Assembly (NCBI GenBank): GCA_030647775.1
Contig: JAUSJC010000007.1
Coordinates: 50,038-114,037 of the forward strand
DNA from: Candidatus Curtissbacteria bacterium
GTDB taxonomy: Bacteria; Patescibacteriota; Microgenomatia; Curtissbacterales; GWA2-41-24
Direction of reading: 5' to 3'
Length of the DNA: 64,000 nucleotides
A program made the position numbers and the translations under genes. The notes under the pieces are model-generated. The model had not been told where the DNA came from. It worked only from the letters and a program-made list of their open reading frames with translations, and did no database searches. Numbering within the stretch: position 1 is the stretch's first letter; every line of letters begins with the position of its first letter. This document shows positions 1 through 29,995 of this stretch, piece by piece.

Positions 1-180
1 TTTGTTGCTTTATCCGTTTTAAATTGGTACAATAACCCCTGCTTAAGTTAGAAGTGTTTAAAAGTTTTTGATTCTCCGGAAGCTATGTTTAAGTTCCTAA
101 ACTTCTCGACTCGAATCTTATTTAAGAAAAATCTGTTTGATATTTTTAATTAATTAAAAGGAGGTGAATTTAAAAACAAT

Positions 181-477
181 ATGGCAAAAAGATTATTTGT
201 AGGAAACCTTGCATATAGCGTAACTAGCGCTCAATTGGAAGAACTGTTTTCCCAAGTTGGAAAGATTTCGAGTTTAAACCTAATCACGGATAAGTTTTCC
301 GGTCAAAGCAAAGGTTTTGCTTTTCTGGAAATGACAACCGACGATGAAGCAAACGAAGCTATCAAGAAATTTAACGGTCACGAAATAGACGGCCGCAAGA
401 TGGTAGTTAACGAAGCCCGTCCGCAGGAAAATAGAGATAACAGAGACAGAAATTACAACAAATCCAAAAGTTGGTAA
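181..477 (+). CDS. RNA-binding protein with a single RRM domain, followed by an Arg/Asp/Asn-rich tail
   Basis: RNP-2 'LFVGNL' and RNP-1 'KGFAFLEM' motifs; strong RBS 'AAAGGAGGTGA' about 10 nt upstream of the ATG. Confidence 0.85.
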   Translation: MAKRLFVGNLAYSVTSAQLEELFSQVGKISSLNLITDKFSGQSKGFAFLEMTTDDEANEAIKKFNGHEIDGRKMVVNEARPQENRDNRDRNYNKSKSW

Positions 478-493
478 GCGAGGTTTTTAGTTA

Positions 494-778
494 ATGCTTA
501 TACAAAACCAGGCAAACTCGACCTGTATCCGTTGCGGGAAGATCCGTATCTTTTCTAAGAAATGGAAGGATAAAGAAAACGGTAAGGGGTCTATGGTAAC
601 TCACGAGGAAACCATATGCCCGGATCATGAATGCCAAAAAATCGTTGATGAAAAATTCAAGGAGATCCGTGACCGCAGAGAGCTTGCCGAAGAGCGAAAA
701 AGATATATAGTTCTAGCAAGGAGTGCCAAATCGAAAACGGGTATTAAGTTTGAAGGGAAAAATTTGGCTTCGTCATAA
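494..778 (+). CDS. hypothetical small Cys-containing (zinc-ribbon-like) protein
   Basis: 94-aa ORF with a GAGG upstream; 'CIRCGK...CPDHEC' cysteine pairs; no recognised family. Confidence 0.35.
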   Translation: MLIQNQANSTCIRCGKIRIFSKKWKDKENGKGSMVTHEETICPDHECQKIVDEKFKEIRDRRELAEERKRYIVLARSAKSKTGIKFEGKNLASS

Positions 779-820
779 AATTCACCTTTTTAGATACAGG
801 GAAGAGAGCTTGTAAATCCC

Positions 821-1843
821 TCATTTGAGGTATTTAGCGAAAAAGTCGAGTGATCTTTGGATGGCTGTTTCAAATGACGAGCCGGAGATGTTGTGGCCGG
901 CGCCCGGATAAGTGTAAAGTTCGACAGTTTTACCGGCAGATTTTAGGGCCGTTTCGAGCCTTTGGGAAAAAGATAAAGGAACTTCTTCGTCAGCTTCGCC
1001 ATGGTGGAGCTGAATCGGGGCCGAAATGTATTTGAGGTTATGAAAAGGGTCAATAGCGCTCCAAAATACTGGATTATCTTTTGGAGTCCCATATTTTTGG
1101 GTAAGGTTTGCCCTGTTGGCATTCCTTAGTGCTAACTGTCTCGGTGACGGTTGAAAGGGAACACGTCTTTGCCAGTTATTCATCAGATCGTTGTAAGATC
1201 CGGTAACGCCGGCCCAAATCACGGCCGCTTTTATATCTGTGGACACTTCTATGTTGCGAAGTGTTATGTTTCCCCCTAATGAATGGCCCCACATGCCAAT
1301 TTTGTTTGGGTTTGCGTCTGCAAACTTTTTGATTGACGAGACGGCATTTAAAATATCGACAGTATAAGCCGGTGAATAATAAGCACCTTCGGGCTCCCCT
1401 TCTGATTTGTCATTTCCCCGGTAATCTGATTTGAAAACTATGTAGCCGCTTGTGGCAAATGTCTCGACATAGGCAATGTAGCGCTCGGTTGTTACATATT
1501 GTTCTGGTGGAATATATCCATGGTTAAAAATAATTACCGGCCAGCCGTCTTTCGGCTTGTCCCCCATCGGAACCGTGAGAAGGGCGTAGATTTTAAGGTC
1601 CTGGGATTTGTAAGAAACTATATATTGTTTGTAATTTACGCCGTCTGGTAGGCTTTGCTCAATTGTAATATTACTGCCGGGGTAAGTCTGGCTTCGCATG
1701 TAATCAATTGCCAAAGGGTTGGAGACTGTGGTTTTAGAAGCTGGCGTTTGGCCGCTATTTGCGGCCGGTGGAGTTTTTTTAGAGAAAATTGCCAAGATAA
1801 CAAATATGAAAAGGAGAAATATTGGTATCAGATATTTTTTCAT
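821..1843 (-). CDS. secreted or membrane-anchored alpha/beta hydrolase (S9 peptidase / dienelactone-hydrolase-like)
   Basis: N-terminal hydrophobic segment; nucleophile-elbow motif 'GHSLGG'; 'GAGH' near the C-terminus. Confidence 0.7.
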   Translation of the reverse strand: MKKYLIPIFLLFIFVILAIFSKKTPPAANSGQTPASKTTVSNPLAIDYMRSQTYPGSNITIEQSLPDGVNYKQYIVSYKSQDLKIYALLTVPMGDKPKDGWPVIIFNHGYIPPEQYVTTERYIAYVETFATSGYIVFKSDYRGNDKSEGEPEGAYYSPAYTVDILNAVSSIKKFADANPNKIGMWGHSLGGNITLRNIEVSTDIKAAVIWAGVTGSYNDLMNNWQRRVPFQPSPRQLALRNANRANLTQKYGTPKDNPVFWSAIDPFHNLKYISAPIQLHHGEADEEVPLSFSQRLETALKSAGKTVELYTYPGAGHNISGSSFETAIQRSLDFFAKYLK

Positions 1844-1958
1844 GGAACTTTGGATTTTCGTCCGATCAATCCATATCCGCTACATACTTAGCGGCGATAG
1901 ACTGACTTTTATCAAGTCGGTTTAGAACCTGCTTATTTTGTGTGGGGTAATTTTATAA

Positions 1959-2144
1959 TTACCACTTGTGCGTAGCACCTACATAAACTGCCGAAGCACC
2001 TACCAATATATAGGCGGTTTTTTCGAGTGTTGGCCACGAACCCAAAAGAAGGGTTACGAGATTAAGGTTTAAGAGTGCGACTAGGCCCCAATTAAGGGCG
2101 CCAACGACAACGAGCGCGAAAGCAACCGTGCTGAGAGCTTTCAT
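1959..2144 (-). CDS. small two-helix membrane protein (DUF378-like)
   Basis: 61 aa, two hydrophobic helices, 'ALNWGLVALL' motif typical of DUF378. Confidence 0.5.
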   Translation of the reverse strand: MKALSTVAFALVVVGALNWGLVALLNLNLVTLLLGSWPTLEKTAYILVGASAVYVGATHKW

Positions 2145-2424
2145 AATTTGTTAATCACCTCCTTCCATTTACCTAATTCCAGATTACAAGTAAATGGGGA
2201 TTTAGTCAAAAGCGAAGTTTTTTGAGATAAAAAATTGGGACTAGTTAATGGTTCCTTATTTTATTGCCGCTTGGCCAGGGACGGCGCAAATATTTGGTGG
2301 GGATTCCAGTTCTTGCTTTATTCACTTTTCTTCTGGCTATTTCCAGCCATTTTTTTCCTTTTTCCCAAGAAGCTTTTATCATTACTTAAATATAACACCA
2401 AATCGCTTTGAGGCCAAATTAGAG

Positions 2425-2495
2425 CTGGGAGACCAGGATTCGAACCTGAATAAACAGCTCCAAAGGCTGTTGTCCTACCATTAGACGATCTCCCA
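2425..2495 (-). tRNA. tRNA-Gln(TTG)
   Basis: Cloverleaf folded by eye on the minus strand: acceptor UGGGAGA/UCUCCCA, D-loop 'AAUGGUAGGAC', anticodon loop CUUUGGA (anticodon UUG), T-loop GGTTCGAATCC; CCA not encoded. Confidence 0.8.
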
Positions 2496-2669
2496 ATGTC
2501 CTTCGTATTTTAGCAAATTGGTGATTGAAAACGAAATGGTTTATGTAATAAGTTCCCACCCTCACCAGGATTTTCGACTTCGTCTCCACATAGTCAACTC
2601 CGCTGGGCGGAGCAAGCCAGTGCCAGCGAAGTTCTTGTTTTTTAAAGACTTGATGTTTATTATTGAAAA

Positions 2670-2954
2670 GTGACTGACGAAAATTTAAAAAAGATAACTA
2701 AGATTGTTAGGGTTGAGATTGGTGATGCACTTAAGCCTGTCAATAAGAAACTTGACGGACACGATAGCCAGTTTAAGTCTATTACAAAGAAACTTGATGA
2801 ACATTCCCAAAGGTTAGAATCTCTCTATTTGGATATGACAGATGTCCAGAAAAAAACGGATTTATTGCCAGATATATATGATATTGTTAAGGGCACTAAA
2901 GAAAAGGTCGATGACCACGAAGAAAGACTCCAAGTTTTGGAAAACGCCGCTTAA
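2670..2954 (+). CDS. coiled-coil repeat protein, paralog 1 (unknown function)
   Basis: GTG start; repeated 'KKLDxHxxxL' heptad-like units; C-terminal 60 aa about 85% identical at DNA level to the ORF at 4984..5289. Confidence 0.5.
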   Translation: MTDENLKKITKIVRVEIGDALKPVNKKLDGHDSQFKSITKKLDEHSQRLESLYLDMTDVQKKTDLLPDIYDIVKGTKEKVDDHEERLQVLENAA

Positions 2955-3110
2955 ATATTAATAGCTTCCATAATCCGCAAGGATTATTTATAATCCTGGT
3001 CTCCCAGCCCTTCTTCGTTCCACTCATCAGGGTCTCCGACAGAATAAAATCGAAGAAGGCACTGAGGAGTCATGACATTAGGAAGGACGACGAAGTGATA
3101 AAATTCATCC

Positions 3111-3356
3111 ATGTCTTTTTTTATTTATATTCTTGAATGTGCTGACAAGACTTACTATGTCGGTTGCACCAATGACCTAGAACGAAGGCTAAAACAACAC
3201 AACGAATCCAAGTGGGGCGCCCACTATACAAAAATTCGAAGACCTGCAACCTTAAAATATTCAGAAGAATTTAAAACTCTTTTAGAAGCGCGTAGAAGAG
3301 AAGCGGAAATCAAAGGCTGGCGTAGACAGAAAAAAGAATTACTTTGGAAGTCTTAA
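3111..3356 (+). CDS. stand-alone GIY-YIG nuclease-domain protein (UPF0213/YhbQ-like)
   Basis: 'FIYILEC...YYVGCTNDLERRLKQHN' GIY-YIG core; 81 aa. Confidence 0.7.
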   Translation: MSFFIYILECADKTYYVGCTNDLERRLKQHNESKWGAHYTKIRRPATLKYSEEFKTLLEARRREAEIKGWRRQKKELLWKS

Positions 3357-3452
3357 AATTTTAAGATCGCAAATCCTAATGGCATCCTAGTCCCGTAGCT
3401 TCTTGAGGTAGTCTCAGTGTACGATGTTAGAACTTCTTGATATACTTCTGAT

Positions 3453-4031
3453 GTGAAAGTGAAAGAATATACGTCATGTTTTATAGGAATCCCTCTCCCT
3501 GAAGAATATCAACAAGATTTTGAAAGCTTACTGGTAGATGTTTCACAAATAGAACCCTTATTAGAAACAACTTATCCAAAAACTCCGCATATTACTGGAT
3601 ATTATTTGGATAAACAGTCTCAGTTTAAAATTCTAAACATCGCCGAGAATGTTAAATCCAAAATCGGTTTACTAAAAGGTGTTAAGTTAACCGTAGGAGG
3701 TTTTGGTTACTTTGGAGGTGATGATCCGAAGGTTATATTTTTGAATGTCCGATATACTGAAGCCTTAAAAGAGTTTAATGATGCAATGACAGGAAGTTTG
3801 TCAGAATATTGTGCCCCTGATAATAACTTACCCTCTCATCCACATATGACAGTCGGAAGAATGAGGATACCCAAGGTCCAGCAGTCATTTAAAAAATCAG
3901 TGTCCATTCTTAAAAATAGACTAAATAAGTTGAGCTGGACGTTTCCAGTGACTGAAGTTGTATTATATGGAGTTGATTCTACTCAAAGTCCTCAGTATCA
4001 GGAAAAGTTAATCTCCATTTCAGTTAGATAA
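3453..4031 (+). CDS. 2H phosphoesterase superfamily protein (LigT-like 2'-5' RNA ligase / cyclic phosphodiesterase)
   Basis: Two H-x-T-x motifs ('HITG' and 'HMTV') at positions typical of the 2H fold. Confidence 0.6.
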   Translation: MKVKEYTSCFIGIPLPEEYQQDFESLLVDVSQIEPLLETTYPKTPHITGYYLDKQSQFKILNIAENVKSKIGLLKGVKLTVGGFGYFGGDDPKVIFLNVRYTEALKEFNDAMTGSLSEYCAPDNNLPSHPHMTVGRMRIPKVQQSFKKSVSILKNRLNKLSWTFPVTEVVLYGVDSTQSPQYQEKLISISVR

Positions 4032-4057
4032 TAAGTTTCGATATAGTCAACTCTTCG

Positions 4058-4172
4058 ACAAATTATAATAGTGAGCGTAGTCGAACTACTCAGTGCTATA
4101 GCCCTTCGATAAGCTCAGGGTCATGACGCTTCGGTGAACTCAGTACTATAGCCAGTGCCAGTTTTATTTAGA
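4058..4172. repeat. repeat family A copy 1 (about 110 nt, internally sub-repeated 'CTTCG...ACTCAGT(A/G)CTATAGCC' units)
   Basis: Shares 'TTATAATNGTGAGCGNAGTCGAACTACTCAG' with the inverted copy at 63860..63960 and 'ACTCAGTACTATAGCCAGTGCC' with 5360..5392. Confidence 0.6.
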
Positions 4173-4282
4173 CCTAGTTTGATATAATCTGCCCAGTAAG
4201 GCTGGTATTGTAAACGCAAGAAATTGTTGGAAGAAGAGAATTTCTAACTAAGTGCCTAAGGTGGGGTATTGGCATACCGGCC

Positions 4283-4861
4283 TTGGCGGCATTGCGTCCA
4301 CTTTCAACACTTGCTGAAGGCGTAACAAATCAGGAATATCAGTTTCCCTGGTCTAGAGATGAAATTCTTTTTGGGCCAAACGCCGGATTTATAGAAGCGA
4401 AAAAAGGAATTCCTCTTGGTGTTTATGCCGCCAGCGGCATACGACCGGACCTTGTTAATTTAAGTATGGCACCCTGGAATAATTTAGCAAACAGTATGGG
4501 GAGAACTGATCTTTTTTACTTCGAAGAAAATCCATCTAGGGCAAAAATAATTATTGGTCAAAGTACGAAAGACTATAGCTATACTGTAGCAAATCCTGAT
4601 TTTAAAAGTCCCTATTTAAGATGCGATATTTACTTGGTGAATCAATGGATAGGAGTTATAACACATGAACTGGGCCATACACTTGGATTTGTTGATTTTA
4701 TTTATAAGGATACTGATCCCCGGGATTATTTCAATCCTAAACGTTGTGATCTTCCGGACAAACCTATTCACAGTATAATGGCACAAAATTTTATTGTTAC
4801 ACCAACAGTGTTGATTGGACCAGACGATGGAATCATGCTTAGGCTCGCGGGGTACGTTTAA
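4283..4861 (+). CDS. putative zinc metallopeptidase (HExxH, metzincin-like)
   Basis: 'HELGHTLGF' HExxHxxG motif followed by 'SIM' (possible Met-turn); start codon uncertain (TTG at 4283). Confidence 0.5.
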   Translation: MAALRPLSTLAEGVTNQEYQFPWSRDEILFGPNAGFIEAKKGIPLGVYAASGIRPDLVNLSMAPWNNLANSMGRTDLFYFEENPSRAKIIIGQSTKDYSYTVANPDFKSPYLRCDIYLVNQWIGVITHELGHTLGFVDFIYKDTDPRDYFNPKRCDLPDKPIHSIMAQNFIVTPTVLIGPDDGIMLRLAGYV

Positions 4862-4983
4862 ACATCACTGAACACATAGCAGGTTAAACTATTCCGAACA
4901 TAATCTAGTGTGGCCAGCTAAAATTTAGCCTCAATTTCTTAGTTATTGACATTAATTAAAGATGTACCGATAATAAAATTCCG

Positions 4984-5289
4984 ATGGCTGACTTGACAAT
5001 AAAGGAAATAGAAGAAGTGTTGGATAAAAAGCTCGATCAAAAACTCGAGCCTATTAAGAAGACACTTGATGAACATTCTAAGAAGCTTAATGAACACGAT
5101 GGTCAGTTTAGATCAATAAAAAAAACTCTTGACGAACATTCCCAAAGGTTAGAATCCATTTTCCCGGATATGGTAGATGTTCAGAAAAAGACAGATATAC
5201 TACCAGACATATATGACATTGTTAAGGGCACTAAAGAAAAGGTCGATGACCATGAAGAAAGACTAGGAGTTCTAGAACACGCTGCTTAA
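4984..5289 (+). CDS. coiled-coil repeat protein, paralog 2
   Basis: Shares the 'LDEHSQRLES...DVQKKTD(I/L)LPDIYDIVKGTKEKVDDHEERL' C-terminus with the ORF at 2670..2954. Confidence 0.5.
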   Translation: MADLTIKEIEEVLDKKLDQKLEPIKKTLDEHSKKLNEHDGQFRSIKKTLDEHSQRLESIFPDMVDVQKKTDILPDIYDIVKGTKEKVDDHEERLGVLEHAA

Positions 5290-5339
5290 TCTATCCAATT
5301 TAAATAATACATTCACACACAATTGTCCTGAGCGGGATC

Positions 5340-5392
5340 GAAGGATAGTCAACCCTTCGAAGTACTCAGTACTATAGCCAGTGCCGGCTCTA
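5340..5392. repeat. repeat family A copy 2 (partial)
   Basis: 'CCCTTCGAAGTACTCAGTACTATAGCCAGTGCCGG' matches the 3' half of copy 1. Confidence 0.55.
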
Positions 5393-5427
5393 TTTGACAA
5401 AGACTTCAAGTTTGTTAAACTCACCTG

Positions 5428-5838
5428 ATGGTAAGTAAACAAAAACGGATCAGCATTATTGCAACCAGCTTTCACAAAAAACACGTGGAGGTGATGCTTG
5501 AGGAGGCAAGAAAAACGTGCGGAGAAGTAAGGCTTGCCGTCGCCAATGAAGTATGGGTTCCGGGATCACTTGAAACCCCCTTGGCATTGCAAAGGGAACT
5601 TATGTCAGAAAAAGTAGATGGGGCCGTAGTTCTGGGTATCATCGAACGCGGAGAAACAAAGCATGGGCTGGTGATGGGCATGGCGGTAATATCTGCTATT
5701 ATCGAAATTCAGCTTCAGGCGGGGAAACCGATTGGTGTCGGGATTCTCGGGCCGGAAATTACCCCTGACCAAATTAAGCCACGCCTGAAACCATACGCAA
5801 AAGATGCTGTTTTAGCCGCTTGGGCAATGTTAAAATAG
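5428..5838 (+). CDS. ribH: 6,7-dimethyl-8-ribityllumazine synthase
   Basis: 'ISIIATSFHKKHVEVMLEEA...VWVPGSLETPLA...VVLGIIERGETKH' aligns with the lumazine synthase family. Confidence 0.8.
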   Translation: MVSKQKRISIIATSFHKKHVEVMLEEARKTCGEVRLAVANEVWVPGSLETPLALQRELMSEKVDGAVVLGIIERGETKHGLVMGMAVISAIIEIQLQAGKPIGVGILGPEITPDQIKPRLKPYAKDAVLAAWAMLK

Positions 5839-6224
5839 TGAACTTAAAACATATAGGAATTTTTTGGGGGAAAGTTGTTAAAGGTAAAAAGAGAGGCAAG
5901 TCTCTCGGTTTCCCTACTGCCAATGTTAAGCTGCACAGGGATATTGCCGACGGGATTTATATATCACTGGCGACAATTGATAAACACCAGTACCCGGCAT
6001 TAACGTTTATCGGCGCGGCTAAAACTTTTCGGGAAAAGGATGTAAAAGCGGAAACGCATCTACTTTCTTTTAGAGAAAACATTTATGGTAAACGGATTTC
6101 AGTCAGGCTTTTGGTAAAAATCCGGGGAAACCAAAATTTCAAGTCAGCAAAGATGCTTGTTTTGCAAATGAAAAGAGATAAACAGATTGCGGAAGAATAC
6201 TTTAAAACCACCAAATATGTTTAG
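5820..6224 (+). CDS. riboflavin kinase domain protein
   Basis: 'GKVVKGKKRGKSLGFPTANV' matches the riboflavin kinase signature (GxVxxGxxxGRxLGFPTANL). Confidence 0.6.
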   Translation: MGNVKIVNLKHIGIFWGKVVKGKKRGKSLGFPTANVKLHRDIADGIYISLATIDKHQYPALTFIGAAKTFREKDVKAETHLLSFRENIYGKRISVRLLVKIRGNQNFKSAKMLVLQMKRDKQIAEEYFKTTKYV

Positions 6225-6795
6225 CGGGATTATCAAGGCCAAAGCAAGCGCCAATAAGACCGAAAAGACGGGAAACGCCATGAGAATAGAGTTTACGGCG
6301 CCAAAAGGGTTTAGGGTGAGCTTGGGAGAGAGTGTAAGTATTGACGGTATATGCTCAACCGTTGAGAAAAAAGCCGGGAACAAGTTCTCTTTTTACTACA
6401 TGGCCGAAACGCTTAAAAAAACTACGCTTGCCCAAATTTCGGGTTCCCATGAGTTTAACATTGAGCGGTGCCTGACACTGCAAAGCTTGATTGGCGGACA
6501 CTTGGTAAGCGGGCATATTGATACCGTTGCCCTGTTAAAATCTATCGCCACGCAAGATGATTCAAAACTTATGGAATTTGTAGTTGACCCGAAATTCACG
6601 AGATACATTATTTATAAAGGGTCCATTGCCGTTAACGGCGTTAGCCTGACTGTTGTTTCCGTTTCCAAAAATTCTTTTCGCGTCTCTCTTATCCCATACA
6701 CACTCGCCCATACAAATCTGGGCAAGTTGAAAGCCGGAGATAAGGTGAATATTGAACTCGACCTGATTGCTAAATATCTTGAGAAACTACGGTGA
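6217..6795 (+). CDS. ribE: riboflavin synthase alpha subunit
   Basis: Begins 'MFSGIIKAK' (canonical MFTGI[IV]); two lumazine-binding repeats; ORF-track start at 6187 is probably an N-terminal over-extension. Confidence 0.75.
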   Translation: MFSGIIKAKASANKTEKTGNAMRIEFTAPKGFRVSLGESVSIDGICSTVEKKAGNKFSFYYMAETLKKTTLAQISGSHEFNIERCLTLQSLIGGHLVSGHIDTVALLKSIATQDDSKLMEFVVDPKFTRYIIYKGSIAVNGVSLTVVSVSKNSFRVSLIPYTLAHTNLGKLKAGDKVNIELDLIAKYLEKLR

Positions 6796-6825
6796 AGAAA
6801 AAATTTGAAGCAGTTTTTGTGACGA

Positions 6826-7479
6826 TTAAATTGATTGAAGTTTTTCAAAGCTAATTTCTTTAAAATCCCTAATGATGATATCTGCTTTTTCTAGGTCTTG
6901 TTTGTTGTAAGGAAGTCCTGCAAAACCAATACATTTCATGCCGGCTGCTTTGGCAGCATTTATTCCATGAGTTGAATCTTCTATCACTAAACAGTGGACT
7001 GGGGCTGTATTTAATTTTTGGGCAGCTCTTAGGAATATGTCGGGGGCTGGTTTGCCATTTTTGACATCGTCGGAGGACACAATTATAGGAAAGTGCTTGT
7101 GAAGCTTAATTATCTTAATTAAAGTAGATACTCTTTTTTGGGAGGCTGATGAGGCGACTGCTAGTTTTAATTTTAGTCGTGATAGTTCTTTAACTAATTC
7201 GACGGCACCGGGTACAGCTTTAAGATCTTTGCTTGTTTTCAAAAAATTAATGTAGCTTTCCCTTCCATCTGTAATTAATTCCTCCAATGTCTTTTCTAAT
7301 TGGTATTCCTCCTTTAGCGTTTCCCAGATTACTTTACTGGATGAGCCTCTGAATCGCTCACCGATAGTCTCGGGAGCTTTAATTCCTAATCTTTCCAGGT
7401 ATTTGACTAAATGAATATCGTTTAGGGGTTCTGTATCGACAAGAACTCCATCCATGTCGAAGATTATGGCTTTAATCAT
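6826..7479 (-). CDS. HAD-IA family hydrolase (beta-phosphoglucomutase-like phosphatase)
   Basis: 'IIFDMDGVLVDTE' motif I, 'ASSA' motif II, and 'GIKAGKAAG...IE DS' motifs III/IV. Confidence 0.75.
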   Translation of the reverse strand: MIKAIIFDMDGVLVDTEPLNDIHLVKYLERLGIKAPETIGERFRGSSSKVIWETLKEEYQLEKTLEELITDGRESYINFLKTSKDLKAVPGAVELVKELSRLKLKLAVASSASQKRVSTLIKIIKLHKHFPIIVSSDDVKNGKPAPDIFLRAAQKLNTAPVHCLVIEDSTHGINAAKAAGMKCIGFAGLPYNKQDLEKADIIIRDFKEISFEKLQSI

Positions 7480-7593
7480 ATAGAGATTATATCAACTTCT
7501 TAAAAATACTACCGTTCTCACTCCAAGCCAAATCCTGATTATGGAATTGATGATATCTCCGAAGTGCTTCCTTTGATACTTAAATAACGCTTT

Positions 7594-8277
7594 CTACACC
7601 AGGGGTTTTTGGCCGCTTTCCTTGAAATCGTCAAGGAATTTTTTGAGGCCGATATCGGTTAGCGGATGCTTTACCAATTTCTCCAGTACATCGTAAGGGC
7701 AGGTGGCAATGTCGGCACTGGCAAGGGCCGCTTGTTTTACATGAAGCGGAGAGCGCACGGACGCAAAAAGGATTTTGGTTTTGAAGCCGTAATTATCGTA
7801 GATTTGGCGGATTTCATCTATCAGGTCAATTCCGGTTTGGCCGATATCATCAAGCCTGCCGATAAAGGGGCTGACAATATAGGCGCCAAGTTTGGCAACA
7901 AGAAGTGCCTGGTTGGCGCTAAACACAAGGGTCATGTTAACTCGGATGCCAGTCTTGGTCAAAACCTTTAGCGCTTTTAGGCCTTCTTCTGTTGTCGGTA
8001 ATTTGATGACTACGTTTTTACCCATTTTTGTCAAGGCTCTCCCCTCTCGGATCATGCCCGGGGCGTCGGTTGATAAAACTTCGAGGCTGATATTATCGGG
8101 AACAATTTTGAGGATTTTGGCGACAGCTTCTTTGTAGGTCATCCCGGCTTTTGCCGCTAAGGATGGGTTTGTAGTCACGCCGTCGATTATTCCAAGAGCC
8201 ATCATCTTTTCAACTTCTTGGGGTACGGCGCTATCAATGTAAAGCTGCATGAGAGGATTTATTGTATCAAGTATCAT
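7594..8277 (-). CDS. transaldolase / fructose-6-phosphate aldolase family
   Basis: 'IDGVTTNPSL' and 'IKLP' lysine region typical of the short TalC/FSA family; -35 TTGACA on the minus strand about 25 nt upstream of the ATG. Confidence 0.8.
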   Translation of the reverse strand: MILDTINPLMQLYIDSAVPQEVEKMMALGIIDGVTTNPSLAAKAGMTYKEAVAKILKIVPDNISLEVLSTDAPGMIREGRALTKMGKNVVIKLPTTEEGLKALKVLTKTGIRVNMTLVFSANQALLVAKLGAYIVSPFIGRLDDIGQTGIDLIDEIRQIYDNYGFKTKILFASVRSPLHVKQAALASADIATCPYDVLEKLVKHPLTDIGLKKFLDDFKESGQKPLV

Positions 8278-8433
8278 GTATCACTTGCTAAGTGTCAAGG
8301 AATTAAAGTTTCCAACTCTATATGTGATAAAATTATTCGAAACTAAAGCAGGGTATATCAGCAGGTCGCTTTGGCACAGCCCTTCGGGCTTCATGCCAAT
8401 AGCGCTCCTCTGATATTCCTCCTCACTACGTTC

Positions 8434-8505
8434 GGGGGTATAGCTCAATGGTAGAGCACTCGCCTCTTAAGCGAATGGTTCAGGGTTCAAATCCCTGTGC
8501 CCCCA
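8434..8505 (+). tRNA. tRNA-Lys(CTT)
   Basis: GGGGGTA acceptor, D-loop AATGGTA, anticodon loop CUCUUAA, T-loop TTCAAAT; CCA not encoded. Confidence 0.8.
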
Positions 8506-8506
8506 C

Positions 8507-9988
8507 TTATTCTCTGACAAGGAGCTGAAAATGGCCGATATTTACTTCGTAGCTTATTGGTTTTCTTAAATTGTCTTCCTCCGTGGTTTTTTGAATCCAA
8601 TGGGGCCACTGGCGGTCGAGACTTGGCTCGATAATTGTGAATTCTGTTTTCGTAATTTCACCGGATCTTGGGAAAACCTCGATTCCCGGGAATGTTGATG
8701 CCGTATTGCCGTGGAAATGAGGCAGGAGAAGGTTATTTTGCTTGGCATACAGCTGGTATAGGTACGCCCAAGTCGTCGGGATATAAAGCGGGTTGGTAAC
8801 AGCATTGATGCTGAACCTTTGGACTGGAGAAATCTCGTAGGTTTTTTTAACGAGCGCCATTTCGTCTTTAAAAATCATGCCGTCCTGAATTCTGAATAGG
8901 ACACTGCCTTTTTGGTTCTTCTCAAAAACGGTAAGGGAGTTAGTAAGAATAATAGCGCCGATTATCAGGACAAAAGCGTATTTTGAAAATAGGCTGACCC
9001 TATGTAAAAAATAGGCGGTCAATACCAAAAGAGGGATGAGACTGCCGAGAGTTATGTAATACGAGCTGAAAGAAGACACGATAAAGATTGGTATATTGGC
9101 AAATAGAAGTATGAGCAGGAAGAGTAATGGCTTCCTTATTTTTTTATCGGTTTTGGCAAGGTAGATAGCAAAGGAAATTATGGCTAGGCCAAGAATGACA
9201 GAGATTGGCCCTGATTGAGGAAATAAATTATTACTGAGCTGCTCTTGCCATTTTTTTAAATATTCCATTAGTTGAGTGTCCAGTGCCGTTTTGGCGCCGA
9301 TGTTGCCGGCGAAAAAATCTGCCGCGCCTTTTATCCCCTGGAACTTAAATTTAAGTTCGGCAACTGCGAAGCTTGAAATAAGAAAGAGGAACCCGGATGC
9401 CCCTAAAAGCATCTCTTTTCTTGGGAAGTACCTGACATTTGCGATTGCCAGTGTCACCAATGCTGATAATATGAGATAGACTAAGAAAATCTGCGTCTGG
9501 ATGGCCAGACCGAGGGCAAGAAAAGTCATGACCCAGCCCCCTTTTTGTTTATGGACGATTTGCCAAAGGCCAAGGTAGAAAAAAGCAATTGCCGGTACTG
9601 CCAGAGATGGGTTGGAAATCCATCTGGCATAAGAAACGGCCTCGAAGGAAACGGCGTAAAGGATGAGGGCGACGATTGAAATAGAAGTGTTTTTGAAGAG
9701 TTTTTGCGTCAATTGCCAAAGAGGAATGAGGACTAAAAGATTGATTAATATCATTTCGATTAAAACTACTTGGGGATCGCCACTGCCCAAAAAGTAAAAT
9801 GGGGAGATAACGTAATAGAAAAGCGGGCCGTGGAAAAACCCCGGGATATCGCTTGGCGGGCCGACAATTTTCAGGTGGCCTTTTGTAATGCTTTGGGCGA
9901 AAAAAGCGTCCCTTGCCTGGTCATAAGTGAAAAGTAAAGTGGAGAGACCCGGCGTAAGCCGCAGGATAAAAGCAAGGGTAACAATCAA
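8507..9988 (-). CDS. polytopic integral membrane protein, possibly a GT-C-type glycosyltransferase
   Basis: 493 aa with more than 10 predicted TM helices and large loops; family not identified with certainty. Confidence 0.4.
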   Translation of the reverse strand: MIVTLAFILRLTPGLSTLLFTYDQARDAFFAQSITKGHLKIVGPPSDIPGFFHGPLFYYVISPFYFLGSGDPQVVLIEMILINLLVLIPLWQLTQKLFKNTSISIVALILYAVSFEAVSYARWISNPSLAVPAIAFFYLGLWQIVHKQKGGWVMTFLALGLAIQTQIFLVYLILSALVTLAIANVRYFPRKEMLLGASGFLFLISSFAVAELKFKFQGIKGAADFFAGNIGAKTALDTQLMEYLKKWQEQLSNNLFPQSGPISVILGLAIISFAIYLAKTDKKIRKPLLFLLILLFANIPIFIVSSFSSYYITLGSLIPLLVLTAYFLHRVSLFSKYAFVLIIGAIILTNSLTVFEKNQKGSVLFRIQDGMIFKDEMALVKKTYEISPVQRFSINAVTNPLYIPTTWAYLYQLYAKQNNLLLPHFHGNTASTFPGIEVFPRSGEITKTEFTIIEPSLDRQWPHWIQKTTEEDNLRKPISYEVNIGHFQLLVRE

Positions 9989-11607: not shown

Positions 11608-11868
11608 ATGTATCAGGTGTACATTTTAAGAAGTTTAAGCAATGGATCTCGGTCATATGTCGGCTTGACCTTGAAGGGGATAAAAAATAGATTAAAAGAG
11701 CACAATGCCGGGGAATCTAGATACACGAAAACCTATATTCCATGGGAGCTAGTGTACTTTGAAAACTTTTATTGTAGGTTATGTGCAGAGAAAAGAGAAA
11801 AATTTCTAAAATCGGGTTTTGGGTATCGGTTTAGAAAGTTGATTTTAGAGAAGTTTAAAGCAGGATAA
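11608..11868 (+). CDS. stand-alone GIY-YIG nuclease-domain protein
   Basis: 'YQVYILRS...YVGLT...RLKEHN' motif; ORF-track start at 11557 lies inside the tRNA-Arg gene, so the Met at 11608 is the likely start. Confidence 0.65.
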   Translation: MYQVYILRSLSNGSRSYVGLTLKGIKNRLKEHNAGESRYTKTYIPWELVYFENFYCRLCAEKREKFLKSGFGYRFRKLILEKFKAG

Positions 11869-11964: not shown

Positions 11965-12279
11965 CACTATTGGCATTTTTTAAATTTAGCTTGTTTGTAC
12001 AATCCGAAAGGGGTTCGAAGATTAAATATCACAAAAAGGCATAGCTTCGAGACGGGTTCGAAGATAGGACTACAGTATAATTTGATCTAAGTTAACCTAA
12101 TTCTAACCAAAAGATAACCTAATTCAAGTCAACCAGATACGCACAAACTTGACGCAGTTTGATCTAAATGGATACAATACTTGACGTAGTTTGTGCTATT
12201 GCCATTTTTTGCCGGGGGCATTTAAGATATCTATAGATATCTGCACTTTAATTAATTACGGGTAGGGTAAAAGAAACAG

Positions 12280-12368
12280 TCCTGCCGACGAGATTCGAAC
12301 TCGCAAAAACCGTGTCACGGGTTAGTAGCTTGATAGGCCACCGCGTCTACCAGTTGCGCCACAGCAGG
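12280..12368 (-). tRNA. class II (long variable arm) tRNA of uncertain identity, embedded in a 13-bp leader/trailer inverted repeat
   Basis: Acceptor CCUGCUG/CGGCAGG, 3-bp D-stem with GG D-loop, variable stem-loop CCGU-GAC-ACGG, T-loop GAGTTCGAATCTC. The best fold gives anticodon loop CUAUCAA (formal anticodon AUC), which matches no Leu/Ser/Tyr/Sec isoacceptor. Confidence 0.5.
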
Positions 12369-19958: not shown

Positions 19959-20201
19959 TTGATGTACTACGTTTATATACTTCAGAGTTCAAAATCTGGA
20001 ATTTTTTACTACGGTTATACGACCGATTTAAAGAAGAGATTTAAAGAACATAACGAAAGCAAGTCTAAATTCACGAGCGGTCATATACCCTGGAAGCTTG
20101 TTTTCTACTGTGCATTTATTGATAAGAAAAAGGCAAAAGATTTTGAACTTTATCTAAAATCAGGATCTGGCAAGGCGTTTGCCTATAAGAGATTAGTTTA
20201 A
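19959..20201 (+). CDS. stand-alone GIY-YIG nuclease-domain protein
   Basis: 'YYVYILQS...YYGYTTDLKKRFKEHN'; paralogous to the gene at 11608..11868. Confidence 0.65.
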   Translation: MMYYVYILQSSKSGIFYYGYTTDLKKRFKEHNESKSKFTSGHIPWKLVFYCAFIDKKKAKDFELYLKSGSGKAFAYKRLV

Positions 20202-20305
20202 GTAGCTTTAGTGAAAGACGTAAGTGGTGATGAAAAAGGTGTTCCGAAACTGTCCGACGCTTAAGCTATGGACAGTGAAGGACACCCTTCACCCGCTCCA
20301 AACGC

Positions 20306-22731: not shown

Positions 22732-22834
22732 GCCCGCGTAGCTCAACGGATAGAGCAGTCGCGTTCTAAGCGATTGTGGGGGTACGCTTTTTCGCGTAGC
22801 GAAAAACTCGAGAAGTCAGATCCCTCCGCGGGCA
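22732..22834 (+). tRNA. tRNA-Arg(TCT)-like gene carrying a roughly 35-nt hairpin insertion in the T-loop
   Basis: Collinear with the canonical tRNA-Arg(TCT) at 29913..29985 through the acceptor, D-arm and anticodon arm (loop GUUCUAA). The T-loop TTCGAAT is replaced by 'T-ACGCTTTTTCGCGTAGCGAAAAACTCGAGAAGTCAG-AT'; the T-stem (GGGGG/CCCTC) and acceptor are preserved. Confidence 0.5.
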
Positions 22835-22914
22835 CAGGAAATTATGGCGTGTAGCGGAAGGATTGGGCTCTGCCCGATGCCTACCCACCCCGACTTTTCG
22901 CGCGCTAAATTCCA

Positions 22915-23000
22915 AAAGTACCGGGTGCAGGCAAGCGGAGCTGTACCAAAAAAATCCGAAGTGCTATTGCCCTGAGTTTATCGAATGGGCTAAAATTAGC
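22915..23000. repeat. 87-bp direct repeat, copy 1 (promoter/5'UTR-like), upstream of the DUF4258 toxin gene
   Basis: Shares 'ATCCGAAGTGCTATTGCCCTGAGTTTATCGAATGGGCTAAAATTAGC' (47/47) with 23583..23667, and the upstream 40 nt at about 80% identity. Confidence 0.7.
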
Positions 23001-23011
23001 CAACTTAGACG

Positions 23012-23266
23012 ATGAAAATTATTTATACACAACATTCGGAAGAAAAACTTAAACGGAGAGATATTAAGAAGTTCAAAATTAATAAAAAACTAATTAAATC
23101 AATTTTAAAAGATCCTCAAATTAAATCCAAAACAAAGTATGGTGATAGCTGCGCCCTGTCAGCTATCAATGGTGACCACGACATAAGAATTATCTATGAT
23201 ATAATAAGTAAAGATAATTCTAAGGTTATAACCTTTCATATCTCTAAAAGAGGCAGGTACGGATGA
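23012..23266 (+). CDS. DUF4258-family toxin (toxin of a DUF4258/DUF2283 TA pair)
   Basis: 'IIYTQHSEEKLKRRDI...IRIIYD...KVITFHISK' matches the DUF4258 pattern; 4-nt overlap (ATGA) with the downstream partner. Confidence 0.55.
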   Translation: MKIIYTQHSEEKLKRRDIKKFKINKKLIKSILKDPQIKSKTKYGDSCALSAINGDHDIRIIYDIISKDNSKVITFHISKRGRYG

Positions 23267-23475
23267 AATTAAAATATTACAAAAAAGACGACATTTTGGT
23301 TATGAATTTTTCCTCAAAAGCTGTTGAGGATTCGTATGAAGTGGAAAGCGCGATTTTAGAAGTCGATAAAGAGAACAATCCTGTATCACTAGAAATTCTG
23401 CATGCTTCCAACTTTTTTAATACAGCCTCCAAAGAACTTCCAATCGGAATCAAGCAAAAATTTTTCTCAGCCTAA
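23263..23475 (+). CDS. DUF2283-family antitoxin
   Basis: 'MKLKYYKKDDILVMNF...VSLEILHASN' matches DUF2283 (consensus 'MKIEYDKEADALYI...GIEILNAS'). Confidence 0.55.
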   Translation: MKLKYYKKDDILVMNFSSKAVEDSYEVESAILEVDKENNPVSLEILHASNFFNTASKELPIGIKQKFFSA

Positions 23476-23582
23476 CTCCTTGCGCTTTCGCACATATCAT
23501 CACAAACTGTGATGATATGGATTAAATACAATCGTAAAAGGTCACCATATATTTTTGCGCTGAGGATTCCCAAAACGCGCCA

Positions 23583-23667
23583 AAGTACCGGGCGCAGGCA
23601 AGCGGCCCTATCCCCAAAAAATCCGAAGTGCTATTGCCCTGAGTTTATCGAATGGGCTAAAATTAGC
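23583..23667. repeat. 87-bp direct repeat, copy 2, upstream of the 732-aa ORF
   Basis: See copy 1. Confidence 0.7.
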
Positions 23668-23687: not shown

Positions 23688-25886
23688 ATGGCACAACAAT
23701 ACCTTGAATTAAAAACAAGCGAAGGCTCTGTAAGAAAATATCCAAACGTCATGTGGTTTCCTCGTTCCAAGACTGACCCCCAAGAAATAAGAGAGGTGCT
23801 TAAACTTGCCTTAAAAATACAAGACGAAAATTCTGATAAATATTTCAATGATAAATTATTGGGTGAACACATGGCACGAATAGGATCAATTAATGTCCTG
23901 GGGATGAAAGGGGAAGATTATATAAAATCGTACCAAGGAAAAAGTATTGGAGACGTTTCTTATATAACCAATGCTCGCATGTTGATGCGACTTTTTAGAT
24001 TCCTTGGTCTTGCCACTAGACTTGAAAGGGGGAAATACGCAATTACTGTACTTGGTAGAACCTATGTAAAATTTAATGGGGACTTCCCTTCTCAGCTAAA
24101 TGGGGAAAATGAAGAACAGATACTGCTACAATTACTCGCAAACTTTGCATTTTACTGCGTTAACGACGACAGCAAGTACAGAGATTCGTCTTTTCAAGTT
24201 AGGCCTTTCATTTGGCTACTCAACACATTAGCTATTGAGCCGCAATGCATTATTCAACTTATCGTAACCGCTTATGCTTCCAAAAGTGAAGGTTTTAATG
24301 AAATTAAAAGGATTAAAAATATTTTAAGTAATCTCAAATCAGGGAAAAGCACCCTTAAAGACGAGTTCACAAATCTAGGGCTGAATCCTAACGACTATAG
24401 CTGCGTTCATAATTTTTACGATAGTGCAAAGATATTAGTTTACTTGGGAATAAGCTTGGGGCTAGTAAAAAAAACCAAAAGCCCTACATATGGAAGAAAA
24501 ATTGCGGGAAACGCTAAGTATCTTAAAAACGCGTCTGCTTTTTACAATCTTACCGTAAAGGGCGAGAAGTATTTAGAAGAAAATATTCAGAAAAAACTCA
24601 TTTATTACTCCGACTTATACAAGGTACTAGGAAACAAAGACGTCCTTCAGTGCTCCTTTATATTAGCGGTGCTCAACACTTCAATCGGCGCTAAGAAAAT
24701 TGAGTCCATAAATATTAATTTTTTCAAAAAAATCTTGGGAAACAAATGGGAAAAATATACAAACTCTCTTAGAAAAAACCTGCAAATTGAAATAGAAATA
24801 AAAGATGGAAAAGTTGCTCTAAAAGATCGGATTTCATTCAACTTTTTCCAAAGCATGCCCCCCGAGTTTTTATACGATGAACCTATGAAAAATTGGTACA
24901 CTGTATTCATGGAGGAATTTAGTGACAAAAAATCTAAGTTATTAAATACAACCACATCAAAAATGGAAGAGCAATTTTCGGGAGAAATAACATCCAAATT
25001 TATACTAGACAAAGATAAAAATCTTGCATACGAAGTTCCTTCACTCACTCTCAAAGAAGCACAAGATTACATAAAGTACGAATACATGGACAATATTTTT
25101 GGGGGTCAAGATAGATATGCTAGTAGGATTTCTCCAACAAATTCAGTAATTCTAGTGGGTGATAAGGTTCATGTAGACAATGTCATTGACGCTCTTGACT
25201 TATTAATTCCGCTTAGACATCCAGACGAAAGGTTAAGAAAATTTATCGATGCCAACATTTCTCAGTTGCTAAAAACCTTTTTGTCCAGATCTGATACATG
25301 GGCAAAGGATCAACATTACGCATGGGTAAGAAACTGCTTTAGACTTTTTGGGGCTACGGCAATTTACTCCGGTTCTAGCGGCATGCTTTCTAGAGCAGAC
25401 ATTAGCATCATTGATCCATTTCTTGGTGGCGTTGAAGCAAAAAGCCCTAGTGAGAACAGGGGCAGTATAAACACAAAAGCAATTAGACAAGCACTCGATG
25501 CTAAAGTTCAGGTTGTAGATTTATATCCCGAAAAGAAAGGCATTCCAAAAATTGCGATAGCAATCGGAAGAAGAATTACTCCATTAGCAATTGCAGAAGA
25601 AAAGAAATGGCGATCAGGAGAAAATCAACCAGTACTTCTAATAACTGATGTAGTTCTTTACTATTTAACACTTAAGTCACTTGATATTCCCTTTGACGAC
25701 AAAGATTTAATTAGACTTTTTACCCAAAATGTAGGACTGCTCGATACGAAATCTTTGAGTGTATCCCTTGAAGAAATAATGAATAACAAAAAAATAGATA
25801 GTCAGGTTAAAGAGAAAATTAGAGAGGAGCTCAATAACTTAGGGGGATTGGTAAGTGGCTCGATTGAGGGAGCAATCGAGGAGTAA
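23688..25886 (+). CDS. large hypothetical protein (732 aa); candidate restriction endonuclease or defense effector partnered with two DNA methyltransferases
   Basis: No recognised family. A possible PD-(D/E)xK-like 'IIDPFLGGVEAK' lies near residue 570. Convergent with, and overlapping by 56 nt, the first MTase gene. Confidence 0.35.
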   Translation: MAQQYLELKTSEGSVRKYPNVMWFPRSKTDPQEIREVLKLALKIQDENSDKYFNDKLLGEHMARIGSINVLGMKGEDYIKSYQGKSIGDVSYITNARMLMRLFRFLGLATRLERGKYAITVLGRTYVKFNGDFPSQLNGENEEQILLQLLANFAFYCVNDDSKYRDSSFQVRPFIWLLNTLAIEPQCIIQLIVTAYASKSEGFNEIKRIKNILSNLKSGKSTLKDEFTNLGLNPNDYSCVHNFYDSAKILVYLGISLGLVKKTKSPTYGRKIAGNAKYLKNASAFYNLTVKGEKYLEENIQKKLIYYSDLYKVLGNKDVLQCSFILAVLNTSIGAKKIESININFFKKILGNKWEKYTNSLRKNLQIEIEIKDGKVALKDRISFNFFQSMPPEFLYDEPMKNWYTVFMEEFSDKKSKLLNTTTSKMEEQFSGEITSKFILDKDKNLAYEVPSLTLKEAQDYIKYEYMDNIFGGQDRYASRISPTNSVILVGDKVHVDNVIDALDLLIPLRHPDERLRKFIDANISQLLKTFLSRSDTWAKDQHYAWVRNCFRLFGATAIYSGSSGMLSRADISIIDPFLGGVEAKSPSENRGSINTKAIRQALDAKVQVVDLYPEKKGIPKIAIAIGRRITPLAIAEEKKWRSGENQPVLLITDVVLYYLTLKSLDIPFDDKDLIRLFTQNVGLLDTKSLSVSLEEIMNNKKIDSQVKEKIREELNNLGGLVSGSIEGAIEE

Positions 25887-29391: not shown

Positions 29392-29553
29392 AATGTATTT
29401 AGTATTTAGGATTGTGGTTTAGTCCCAGTACTAGATTCCGGGCTTGGAGTCGGCGAGGGAATTACTGTTGGATTAAATACGGGTTCGACAAGCTCACTGC
29501 TATAACTTGTACCTCCGCGATATCTGTCACCTTAAGCACGTTGGGATTTTAGC
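29392..29553. repeat. repeat family C copy 1 (about 160 nt)
   Basis: About 80% identical to 31528..31667. It contains the hairpin ACAAGCT-N9-AGCTTGT and the conserved 'CCGCGATATCTGTCACCTTA'. Confidence 0.65.
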
Positions 29554-29985: not shown

Positions 29986-29995
29986 CATAAAATTA

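Follow-up and report, generated by a model that had tools for sequence, protein, structure and literature searches.

Five small protein-coding genes lie between 2.4 and 5.4 kb of a 64,000-nucleotide stretch of Candidatus Curtissbacteria DNA (hereafter the window), and they probably make up a mosaic variable region beside a tRNA-Gln gene, in which genes with unrelated functions and separate histories have come together and a small GIY-YIG nuclease gene is a selfish insert. The source is a metagenome-assembled genome (MAG) of an uncultured member of the candidate phyla radiation (CPR), within the Microgenomates. A sequence-only reading of this interval had listed two paralogous coiled-coil genes (cc1 and cc2), a GIY-YIG nuclease gene, a LigT-like 2H phosphoesterase gene, an HExxH protease gene and a motif present three times, and the open reading frame (ORF) listing, the family and fold matches and the repeat searches agree that all of these elements are real. 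Its further suggestion of a mobile or defense module survives as a hint of mobile DNA, in the form of a variable tRNA-Gln region and an insert-like GIY-YIG gene, but the proposed unit was the wrong one and no coherent module emerged. In the history that we favor, cc2 would be the resident gene beside tRNA-Gln and cc1 its old, diverged paralog; the GIY-YIG gene would have been inserted separately, bracketed by copies of the tRNA-Gln 3′ end, like further small GIY-YIG genes of this and related genomes at tRNA-Gln, tRNA-Gly and tRNA-Phe; the nuclease, or a factor acting in trans, would target tRNA 3′ ends, with each insertion regenerating the tRNA end; and 2H genes, often found beside tRNA genes, would end up next to GIY-YIG inserts as a by-product. 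The end of a composite intergenic element would merge into tRNA-Gln- or trailer-like sequence next to promoters.

The tRNA-Gln(UUG) gene is on the minus strand at 2424..2495 (ARAGORN; Rfam, 63.3 bits), carries the 3′ trailer CTCTAATTTGGCCTCAA (2408-2423, minus strand) and shares 100% identity with the tRNA-Gln that opens L047, one of the loci from related genomes that are designated here by L numbers. An Rfam scan of positions 2200-5500 returned tRNA only, at gathering or E≤5 thresholds. The GIY-YIG gene (3111..3356, plus strand) is small and stands alone. Its 81-aa product matches PF01541 with 65.2 bits (cutoff 22.6, E=6.6e-18) across residues 3-75, which is the catalytic domain alone, and it shows the marks of family membership, with IYI...YVG motifs and an Arg (ERRLKQH) and a Glu (EAEIKGW) at positions conserved in homologues; it is 41-46% identical to a clade of GIY-YIG proteins linked to tRNA-Gln and 2H genes (L012, L019 and L036). 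Copies of tRNA 3′ ends lie on both sides of the gene. In particular, W5 (AATCCTGGTCTCCCAGC, 2992..3008, plus strand), 103 nt upstream of the GIY-YIG start, is a perfect 17-nt copy (17/17) of the 3′ end of the window's tRNA-Gln(UUG), with a blastn-short E of 4e-4 and an empirical p of ~7e-4. On the other side, W6 (ATCCTAGTCCCGTAGC, 3384..3399, plus strand), 28 nt past the GIY-YIG stop, is a remnant of a tRNA-Gln(CUG)-type 3′ end, 15/16 identical to the ends found in L010 and L012, and its 12-nt exact match has an empirical p of ~7e-4. The block ATTATTTATAATCC precedes W5 and also occurs in L006, followed in each genome by that genome's own acceptor sequence. The order in L006 is tRNA-Gln(UUG), a GIY-YIG gene with an in-frame stop, a 15-nt tRNA-end copy, a cc promoter and cc, downstream of which come a ATAGTCAA..AGTGCCAG element, then ATTATTTATAATCC, and then another tRNA-end copy.

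Small GIY-YIG genes adjoin tRNA genes at other loci as well. Twelve such genes are detectable in the 416 kb of loci compared, and seven of them adjoin a tRNA gene on the same strand at a distance of less than 200 nt, six just 3′ of the tRNA and one just 5′, against a background density of one tRNA per 11 kb. These are the genes at window 11608 (tRNA-Arg and tRNA-Pro), at window 19959 and in L022 (tRNA-Gly), in L002 (tRNA-Phe), in L006 (tRNA-Gln) and in L030 (just 5′ of a tRNA-Val pair), together with the gene at window 3111, for which the W5 remnant was counted as the adjoining tRNA. Moreover, six of the eight GIY-YIG loci tested (L006, L022, L002, L012, window 19959 and window 3111) carry a 9-17 nt copy of their own tRNA's 3′ end just before or beyond the gene (empirical p from <0.001 to 0.01). 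Decayed copies also occur, one with its in-frame stop (L006) and one truncated (L019a). Occupancy is patchy: the 3′ flank of tRNA-Gln holds a GIY-YIG gene in L006, L012, L019 and the window and lacks one in L047, and the flank of tRNA-Gly(UCC) is occupied in the window and L022 and empty in L016, L023 and L025. Between genomes that are distant from each other, as those compared here are, such patchiness is at most suggestive of a free-standing homing endonuclease gene.

Within the window, the GIY-YIG gene at 11608-11868 is wedged between tRNA-Arg(TCG) and tRNA-Pro, and the one at 19959-20201 starts 109 nt after tRNA-Gly(UCC) and has a 10-nt copy of the tRNA-Gly 3′ end 88 nt past its stop. The L022 gene (7861-8097) has the same arrangement, with a 14-nt tRNA-Gly-end copy at the same offset, while the L030 gene lies at 3221-3457. 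Genes of the subtype seen at window 19959 have a 19-nt inverted repeat on their flanks, made of AATCTTTCGCTAAAGCTTC and its complement (L006 7587-7605 and 7854-7872; window 20204-20218); one arm immediately follows the tRNA end and the second falls within the 3′ end of the ORF, in the manner of terminal inverted repeats. In addition, W5 and the real tRNA-Gln end constitute a 20-nt inverted repeat (2421-2440 and 2992-3011, 95% complementary) that bounds a 591-bp segment (2421..3011) containing tRNA-Gln, the intergenic element copy W1 and cc1. Recombination between these arms would flip the segment and leave the tRNA intact, and the segment could be invertible or the scar of a past inversion.

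The two coiled-coil genes, cc1 (2670..2954, plus strand, 94 aa, GTG start) and cc2 (4984..5289, plus strand, 101 aa, ATG start), are on record as the hypothetical proteins Q7S45_01655 and Q7S45_01675 (exact matches, Candidatus Curtissbacteria MAG). Positions 2744-2954 and 5079-5289 are 81% identical over 211 nt, and at the codon level the 3′ halves are 83% and the 5′ halves 61% identical, so that the earlier figure of an about 85% identical 3′ half beside a diverged 5′ half was roughly right. Its reading as a segmental duplication that captured the intervening genes is not supported. Synonymous divergence (dS) amounts to 0.93 for the 3′ half and 1.41 for the 5′ half, the flanks of the two genes share no homology, and in its N-terminal half cc2 is 94% identical to its ortholog P0003, which comes from a different sample, and only 43% identical to cc1. 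Because synonymous sites are saturated and the flanks lack homology, the duplication is old, not recent. Nor do repeats bracket the two paralogs alike; DNA similarity is absent past the stop codons, and weak similarity is left only in the promoters. No homologue exceeds 55% identity to cc1 in the N-terminal half, whereas the C-terminal half of cc1 is 85% identical both to cc2 and to P0003. With a ratio of nonsynonymous to synonymous divergence (dN/dS) of 0.095 in the 3′ half, the similar 3′ halves reflect purifying selection on a conserved C-terminal domain, and cc1 is an old, diverged paralog. Gene conversion was rejected as the source of the similar 3′ halves, as synonymous sites there are also strongly diverged (dS 0.93). 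The case illustrates how paralogs described as 85% identical in one half can be explained by purifying selection and not by recent duplication.

The coiled-coil family comprises 33 clusters at 90% identity among 5.8 billion proteins, and its named members are all Curtissbacteria; by these searches the family is Curtissbacteria-restricted, with cc2, the syntenic ortholog, as the probable resident gene and cc1 as its old paralog. All members keep the C-terminal domain (LDSLTLDMIDVQKKTDILPDL..KGTKEKVDDHEERI..LE), and their lengths step by 7 residues (73, 80, 87, 94, 101, 108 and 122 aa) through gain or loss of an LDEH(S/T)xK repeat in the middle of the protein, coded by a 21-nt DNA repeat (window 5048-5141). 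One such 7-aa LDEHxxK repeat more is present in cc2 than in cc1, and a hairpin, ATAATCC-GCAA-GGATTAT, follows cc1 at 2970-2987. Profile searches with the coiled-coil proteins (Pfam, NCBIfam and PDB) gave generic coiled-coil similarity and nothing more. Neither protein reaches the cutoff of the XhlA haemolysin family (PF10779, 34.7 bits), cc1 scoring 18.1 bits and cc2 scoring 12.9; weak matches to that family come from 17 of 32 coiled-coil family members (best E=2.4e-5), and the family alignment contains no hydrophobic C-terminal segment of the XhlA type. A scan of viral_contigs found no relatives of the coiled-coil proteins, and their PHROGs matches are weak and to families of unknown function.

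In eight other lineages cc is single-copy, its neighbors differ each time and the cassette is missing, which is largely the outcome that the sequence-only reading had itself named as its refutation. The neighbors are Phd alone (L001), a DUF2283 pair with unknown genes (L002-5), tRNA-Gln and GIY-YIG (L006-8), Phd/ParE with a metallo-β-lactamase (MBL)-fold protein (L047), HicAB and NYN (L048/49), a DUF5678 pair (L050) and hydrolases (L051); HExxH and 2H genes are absent from all of these cc loci. What recurs is the tRNA. The L047 locus starts with the tRNA-Gln identical to that of the window, 1.8 kb upstream of cc, followed by a 207-aa gene, Phd/ParE and cc, and it shares with the window (cc2) the order cc ... 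transaldolase; L050 has a degenerate tRNA-Gln-like remnant with trailer directly upstream of cc. From these comparisons, cc in other genomes has tRNA-Gln(UUG), or what remains of this tRNA gene, just upstream. The downstream boundary of the region is housekeeping DNA, as ribH (lumazine synthase; 5428..5838, plus strand; PF00885, E=1.8e-24) is the first gene of the riboflavin cluster. A RibH synteny scan of genome contigs gave three loci only (67-77% identical), with differing upstream genes, which permit no empty-site comparison.

The 2H phosphoesterase gene (3453..4031, plus strand, 192 aa) encodes a putative RNA 2′,3′-cyclic phosphodiesterase of ThpR/LigT type, and close homologues bear the same enzyme name at NCBI. 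The protein matches PF13563 with 50.1 bits (cutoff 27, E=4e-13) and TIGR02258 with 63.2 bits, narrowly under the 65.7 equivalog cutoff. Its H-x-T motifs are H46-I-T48 and H131-M-T133; across 30 homologues H46, T48 and H131 are invariant and T133 is nearly so. Like ThpR/LigT (TIGR02258), it is about 190 aa long with two H-x-T motifs and matches to Pfam 2_5_RNA_ligase2 and LigT_PEase. Unlike ThpR, it falls just under the equivalog cutoff and belongs to a Microgenomates-specific subfamily whose genes are often by tRNA genes. The family is well conserved in Daviesbacteria, Curtissbacteria and other Patescibacteria.

The adjacency of this gene to the GIY-YIG gene could mark a real nucleic-acid end-processing pair, acting for example in tRNA or RNA damage and repair and retained beside tRNA-Gln because tRNA would be what both act on, with the protease and coiled-coil genes as bystanders, an explanation that we consider unlikely. 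Across 27 2H loci, surveyed with flanks of up to 5 kb each side, the window, L019 and L036 (immediately downstream) are the only ones with a GIY-YIG gene directly beside 2H, and in L012 one gene stands between the two. In L019 the two are fused in frame into a 275-aa protein (P0077), with a second, truncated GIY-YIG gene upstream. These four cases, the 2H genes that adjoin tRNA genes in 8-9 of the 27 loci and a T4 Rnl1-like RNA ligase near 2H in L016 favor a pair, but about 20 of the 27 loci have no GIY-YIG gene in the surveyed flanks, so that the pairing, whose conservation had been put forward as a check, is not conserved. Moreover, all four linked loci have tRNA-Gln in common: L012 and L019 each begin with a tRNA-Gln 3′ half, and L036 has a tRNA-Gln(CUG) 1.8 kb upstream. 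The divergence of the two genes is also discordant, as the GIY-YIG proteins of L012, L019 and L036 are 70-77% identical and their 2H proteins 44-56%, while between the window and L012 the 2H proteins are 73% and the GIY-YIG proteins 46% identical. Because of the common tRNA-Gln and this discordance, the adjacency is attributed mainly to a shared tRNA-Gln neighborhood, with both genes lying beside the same tRNA, and we conclude that the P0077 fusion is a secondary accident. Two further points run against a pair: the W6 tRNA-end remnant separates GIY-YIG and 2H in the window, and other GIY-YIG subtypes occur at tRNA genes where 2H is missing. A literature search found no paper connecting GIY-YIG with 2H domains, and none tying small bacterial GIY-YIG genes to tRNA 3′ ends.

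At several Daviesbacteria-like loci (L016, L023, L025 and L041), 2H and a tRNA gene are convergent and 20-50 nt apart; the tRNA is tRNA-Gly(UCC) or, in L041, tRNA-Gln(UUG). The Rnl1-like ligase of L016 (1781-2830) lies 2 kb upstream of 2H. These arrangements hint at a separate tRNA- or RNA-repair context for the 2H family.

The copies of tRNA ends could also have been left by an integrase, in which case the region would be an islet made at tRNA-Gln with att-like copies remaining, the integrase lost or supplied in trans, and GIY-YIG, cc, 2H and HExxH all passive cargo; this, too, strikes us as improbable. As in tRNA-targeting integrative islands, the accessory DNA next to the tRNA gene is delimited by partial tRNA 3′-end copies and varies in gene content between relatives. 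Such copies stand at 2992-3008 and 3384-3399 and, as direct copies, in L006; the window has a tRNA-Arg(TCT) with partial duplicates 7.2 kb apart, as islands of this sort would leave; and toxin-antitoxin (TA) modules accompany cc in other genomes. Those islands are integrase-mediated and have attL and attR, however, whereas no integrase-like ORF appears in the ORF listing of window 1-9000. Likewise, no tyrosine or serine recombinase is found among the identified ORFs of that interval (not every ORF was scanned against the family library), nor does the precomputed Pfam annotation list one for the related loci. In addition, the units bracketed by tRNA-end copies are tiny (~350-450 bp) and contain a GIY-YIG gene only, and the real tRNA of the window is inverted relative to the W5 copy. 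An integron attC array, brought to mind by neighborhoods that resemble TA-rich cassette arrays, was examined by eye as a further candidate and rejected: the left end of the intergenic element, AGTCAAC, misses the R'' consensus by one base and has no GTTRRRY partner, and positions 1-9000 contain no integrase-like ORF.

The third enzyme has a different affinity. The HExxH gene (annotated at 4283-4861, or 4214..4861 with an upstream in-frame stretch; plus strand, 192 aa, TTG start) yielded one homologue in a word-indexed search and 38 representatives in an exhaustive HMMER search. In the family alignment, HELGHxLGFxD is invariant (H128, E129, H132, G135 and D138) and is followed by a shared G-[VI]-M-S-Y block, and the homologues carry twin-arginine (Tat) signal peptides. 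A PDB profile search gave weak matches to serralysins and to snapalysin (1C7K, HETGHVLGLPD). The AlphaFold (AF2) model has a pLDDT of 91.7, and its top Foldseek matches are an astacin-type hatching enzyme, karilysin and matrix metalloproteinases (MMPs), with probabilities of ~1.0 and TM-scores of ~0.45-0.55. The protein resembles snapalysin (M7) in its zinc motif HExxHxxGxxD, with Asp as the third ligand as in 1C7K and a conserved downstream Met, and resembles MMP and astacin metzincins in its predicted fold and in homologues with secretion signals. It differs from all of these in that it reaches no family threshold, has moderate TM-scores, comes from a family of 38 representatives and lacks a canonical signal-peptide start. 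By sequence the hits are motif-level only, and no curated peptidase family in Pfam or NCBIfam was at threshold, with Peptidase_M57 at 15 bits against 21 and M7 unreported. The metzincin-like label given to the gene at the outset is thus supported by family alignment and predicted fold, and the protein is a small metzincin of a rare Tat-signal family, unrelated to nucleic-acid end processing.

The annotated TTG start (4283) would give a protein without an export signal. The in-frame stretch upstream of it (window 4211-4285) reads *TQEIVGRREFLTK and includes the twin-arginine motif GRREFLTK, and an ACG at 4214, right after a TAA stop, occupies the position of the homologues' Met. The canonical start has been lost, which leaves two options, use of a non-canonical start or decay of the gene.

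The intergenic DNA between these genes contains related repeats. The motif TAGCCAGTGCCRG has plus-strand matches at 2614, 4149 and 5375, compared with 0.10 expected, and three matches were reached in none of 100 shuffles; ATAGTCAAC likewise has three occurrences, on the plus strand only, at 2590, 4043 and 5345. The three copies of the motif first noticed are therefore confirmed, but their placement downstream of each unit is not, since the first copy is upstream of cc1, between cc1 and tRNA-Gln, and downstream of no unit. W1 (2583..2626, plus strand) consists of TCCACATAGTCAAC, a hairpin (CTCCGC...GCGGAG) and AAGCCAGTGCCAG, and matches an L047 element upstream of cc (TCTCCACATAGT...GCAAGCCAGTGCCAGC); a weak promoter-like TTGTTT-17-TATTAT, read by eye, follows it. 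W2 (4043..4161, plus strand), located by repeat and motif matches, consists of ATAGTCAAC, several REP-like modules (CCCTTCGA-N5-CTCAGGG at 4104 and 4129, with an inverted copy at ~4071) and TAGCCAGTGCCAG, and is followed by a promoter-like extended -10, TGATATAAT (4180-4188), also read by eye. W3 (5326..5387, plus strand) combines the motif with an imperfect palindrome, in which CCTGAG..TCGAAGG and CCTTCGA..CTCAG enclose ATAGTCAAC, with TATAGCCAGTGCCGG after it; it abuts a promoter-like TTGACA-16-TAAACT of ribH (5394-5421), and equivalents occur downstream of cc in L006, L047 and L050. A fourth, degenerate copy upstream of cc2 (4898-4934) had been overlooked. This copy, ACATAATCTAG..GGCCAG-CTAAAATTTAGCCTCAA, together with the cc2 promoter forms W4 (4898..4974, plus strand), which was defined by a promoter scan and an alignment of cc loci.

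Overall, the copies conform to a composite element made of CCTACATAGTCAAC, 0-100 nt often with REP modules, (TA)TAGCCAG(TGCCAG) and CTCTAATTTAGCCTCAA, of which TAGCCAGTGCCRG is the right-hand part. On the downstream side of cc, composite copies are present in L006, L047, L050 and the window (cc2); on the upstream side they are present in L047 and the window (at cc1, and in degenerate form before cc2). Others separate neighboring small genes. Within the 64-kb window, ATAGTCAAC...AGCCAGTGCCAG composites are confined to a 2.8-kb interval, and elsewhere they are found at the cc and tRNA-Gln loci of relatives. The REP-like module CCCTTCGA-N5-CTCAGGG is spread more widely: many related genomes have it between their genes, in both orientations and often in clusters, and in the window it occurs at 4104, 4129, 5328 (minus strand), 5355 and 61412. 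The right end of the composite, CCAG-CTCTAATTTAGCCTCAA, resembles the last bases of tRNA-Gln with its trailer (TCTCCCAG-CTCTAATTTGGCCTCAA, 2408-2431, minus strand), and sits just upstream of the promoter-like hexamers (-35 region) of the next gene; the trailer of the window tRNA-Gln similarly resembles sequence upstream of cc promoters. Like repetitive extragenic palindromic (REP) sequences, bacterial interspersed mosaic elements (BIMEs) and the Neisseria Correia repeats, these are short imperfect palindromes scattered in intergenic DNA in either orientation and often clustered, and like Correia elements the window copies abut promoter-like sequence. Unlike all three, they belong to another sequence family, with the composite confined to the 2.8 kb of the window and the relatives' cc and tRNA-Gln loci, and with folds that are not significant. 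Their use as intrinsic terminators was rejected, since a terminator scan was no richer than in shuffled sequence and placed no site at the repeats.

Promoter-like sequences precede cc1, the HExxH gene, cc2 and ribH, and because of this most genes look like separate transcription units. The one before cc2 is TTGACA-17-GATAAT (4946-4974), with 11/12 consensus matches and the cc2 ATG 9 nt after the -10 hexamer. Seven of the eight cc loci share this architecture, their ATG lying 7-9 nt past the -10 hexamer, a distance so short that cc mRNAs are probably leaderless.

A single mobile or defense module set between two coiled-coil paralogs and repeats, or a segmental duplication of recent date that trapped the inner genes, is very hard to uphold: paralogs do flank three enzymes, the motif does recur three times and TA and nuclease genes abound around cc homologues, as they do in defense islands, but dS is ~1 with flanks that lack homology, GIY-YIG, 2H and HExxH occur together at no other locus compared, the PADLOC matches of the region's genes are coiled-coil noise or partial (E 0.002 or worse), no relative turned up in viral contigs, HExxH comes from a family with Tat export signals and the promoter-like sequences point to separate-looking units. 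Both a defense system, with no meaningful PADLOC match, and a viral origin of cc were accordingly rejected.

Among the closest known systems are the free-standing GIY-YIG homing endonuclease genes (seg genes) of T4-like phages, for which PMC2988022 and PMC13096335 give background. SegB is located in the T4 tRNA gene cluster. Like the seg genes, the window GIY-YIG gene stands alone in intergenic DNA, beside or among tRNA genes, and small GIY-YIG genes of its kind are patchy among related genomes and include decayed copies. Unlike them, it is chromosomal in CPR bacteria and encodes a predicted nuclease of ~80 aa with no DNA-binding domain. On the sequence comparisons made here, the small GIY-YIG genes are probably selfish mini-cassettes that target tRNA 3′ ends.

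Several observations weigh against the mosaic region and its selfish insert as proposed here. The GIY-YIG loci at window 11608 and L019a have no tRNA-end copy, and the 81-aa protein has no DNA-binding module of the kind expected of a homing endonuclease. The inserts are bracketed by short tRNA 3′-end copies, unlike seg genes, and duplicated targets are not a product of classical homing; tandem tRNA genes in decay are another possible source of the copies. In the window, W5 and the real tRNA-Gln stand in opposite orientations, so that a simple attL/attR picture would require one more inversion. The repeats do not fold significantly better than shuffles, with z from -1.7 to +0.8 for the three copies (W2 +0.8, W3 -1.7) and from -2.2 to +1.4 for three copies and two spacers together. 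The presence of GIY-YIG near 2H in four lineages, including the in-frame fusion P0077, could reflect a real functional link. Further, the comparison loci are few and were gathered via cc and 2H homologues, which biases the sampling, and the empty and occupied sites compared belong to distant genomes, not to near-identical ones.

A broader possibility, offered tentatively, is that the ~80-aa stand-alone GIY-YIG genes of Curtissbacteria/Microgenomates are autonomous or trans-mobilized elements inserting at tRNA 3′ ends (Gln, Gly, Phe, Arg/Pro and Val), which would regenerate the tRNA end and leave a short duplicate behind. Successive insertions, along with a composite promoter-bearing repeat, would build small gene arrays beside tRNA-Gln with no integrase, where cc, TA pairs, 2H and orphan genes such as the metzincin accumulate. 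CPR genomes are tiny and thought to be poor in mobile elements. If the proposal is true, ultra-small GIY-YIG genes homing to tRNA 3′ ends would make up a class of selfish DNA that is both simple and abundant in CPR genomes, and such homing would explain many of the genes annotated as 'GIY-YIG nuclease family' beside tRNAs. The adjacency and fusion of GIY-YIG and 2H indicate, moreover, that guilt-by-association and Rosetta-stone arguments can mislead at a common insertion hotspot. For the region itself, there is no nuclease-phosphoesterase-protease module, and it is no candidate defense or mobile system as first described.

Elsewhere in the window, tRNA-Arg(TCT) with its 3′ flank (29913-30077) is partially duplicated at 22738-22836 (95% and 92% identity), 7.2 kb upstream of the real gene, which suggests an island integrated at tRNA-Arg. 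The interval contains a 732-aa ORF (23688-25886) and a DUF4258/DUF2283-like TA pair (23012-23475) that lies between direct repeats of 86 nt (22915-23000 and 23582-23667; 93% identical). On the minus strand at 12279-12368, ARAGORN reports a 90-nt tRNA-Asp with an odd ATC anticodon (Rfam, 42.5 bits), which may be intron-containing or aberrant. Dispersed direct repeats of 62-97 nt, 91-92% identical and some with a TTCGACAAGCTCA core, lie at 29438-29534 and 31572-31668 and at 39865-39926 and 42924-42985, and the genome thus carries several intergenic repeat families.

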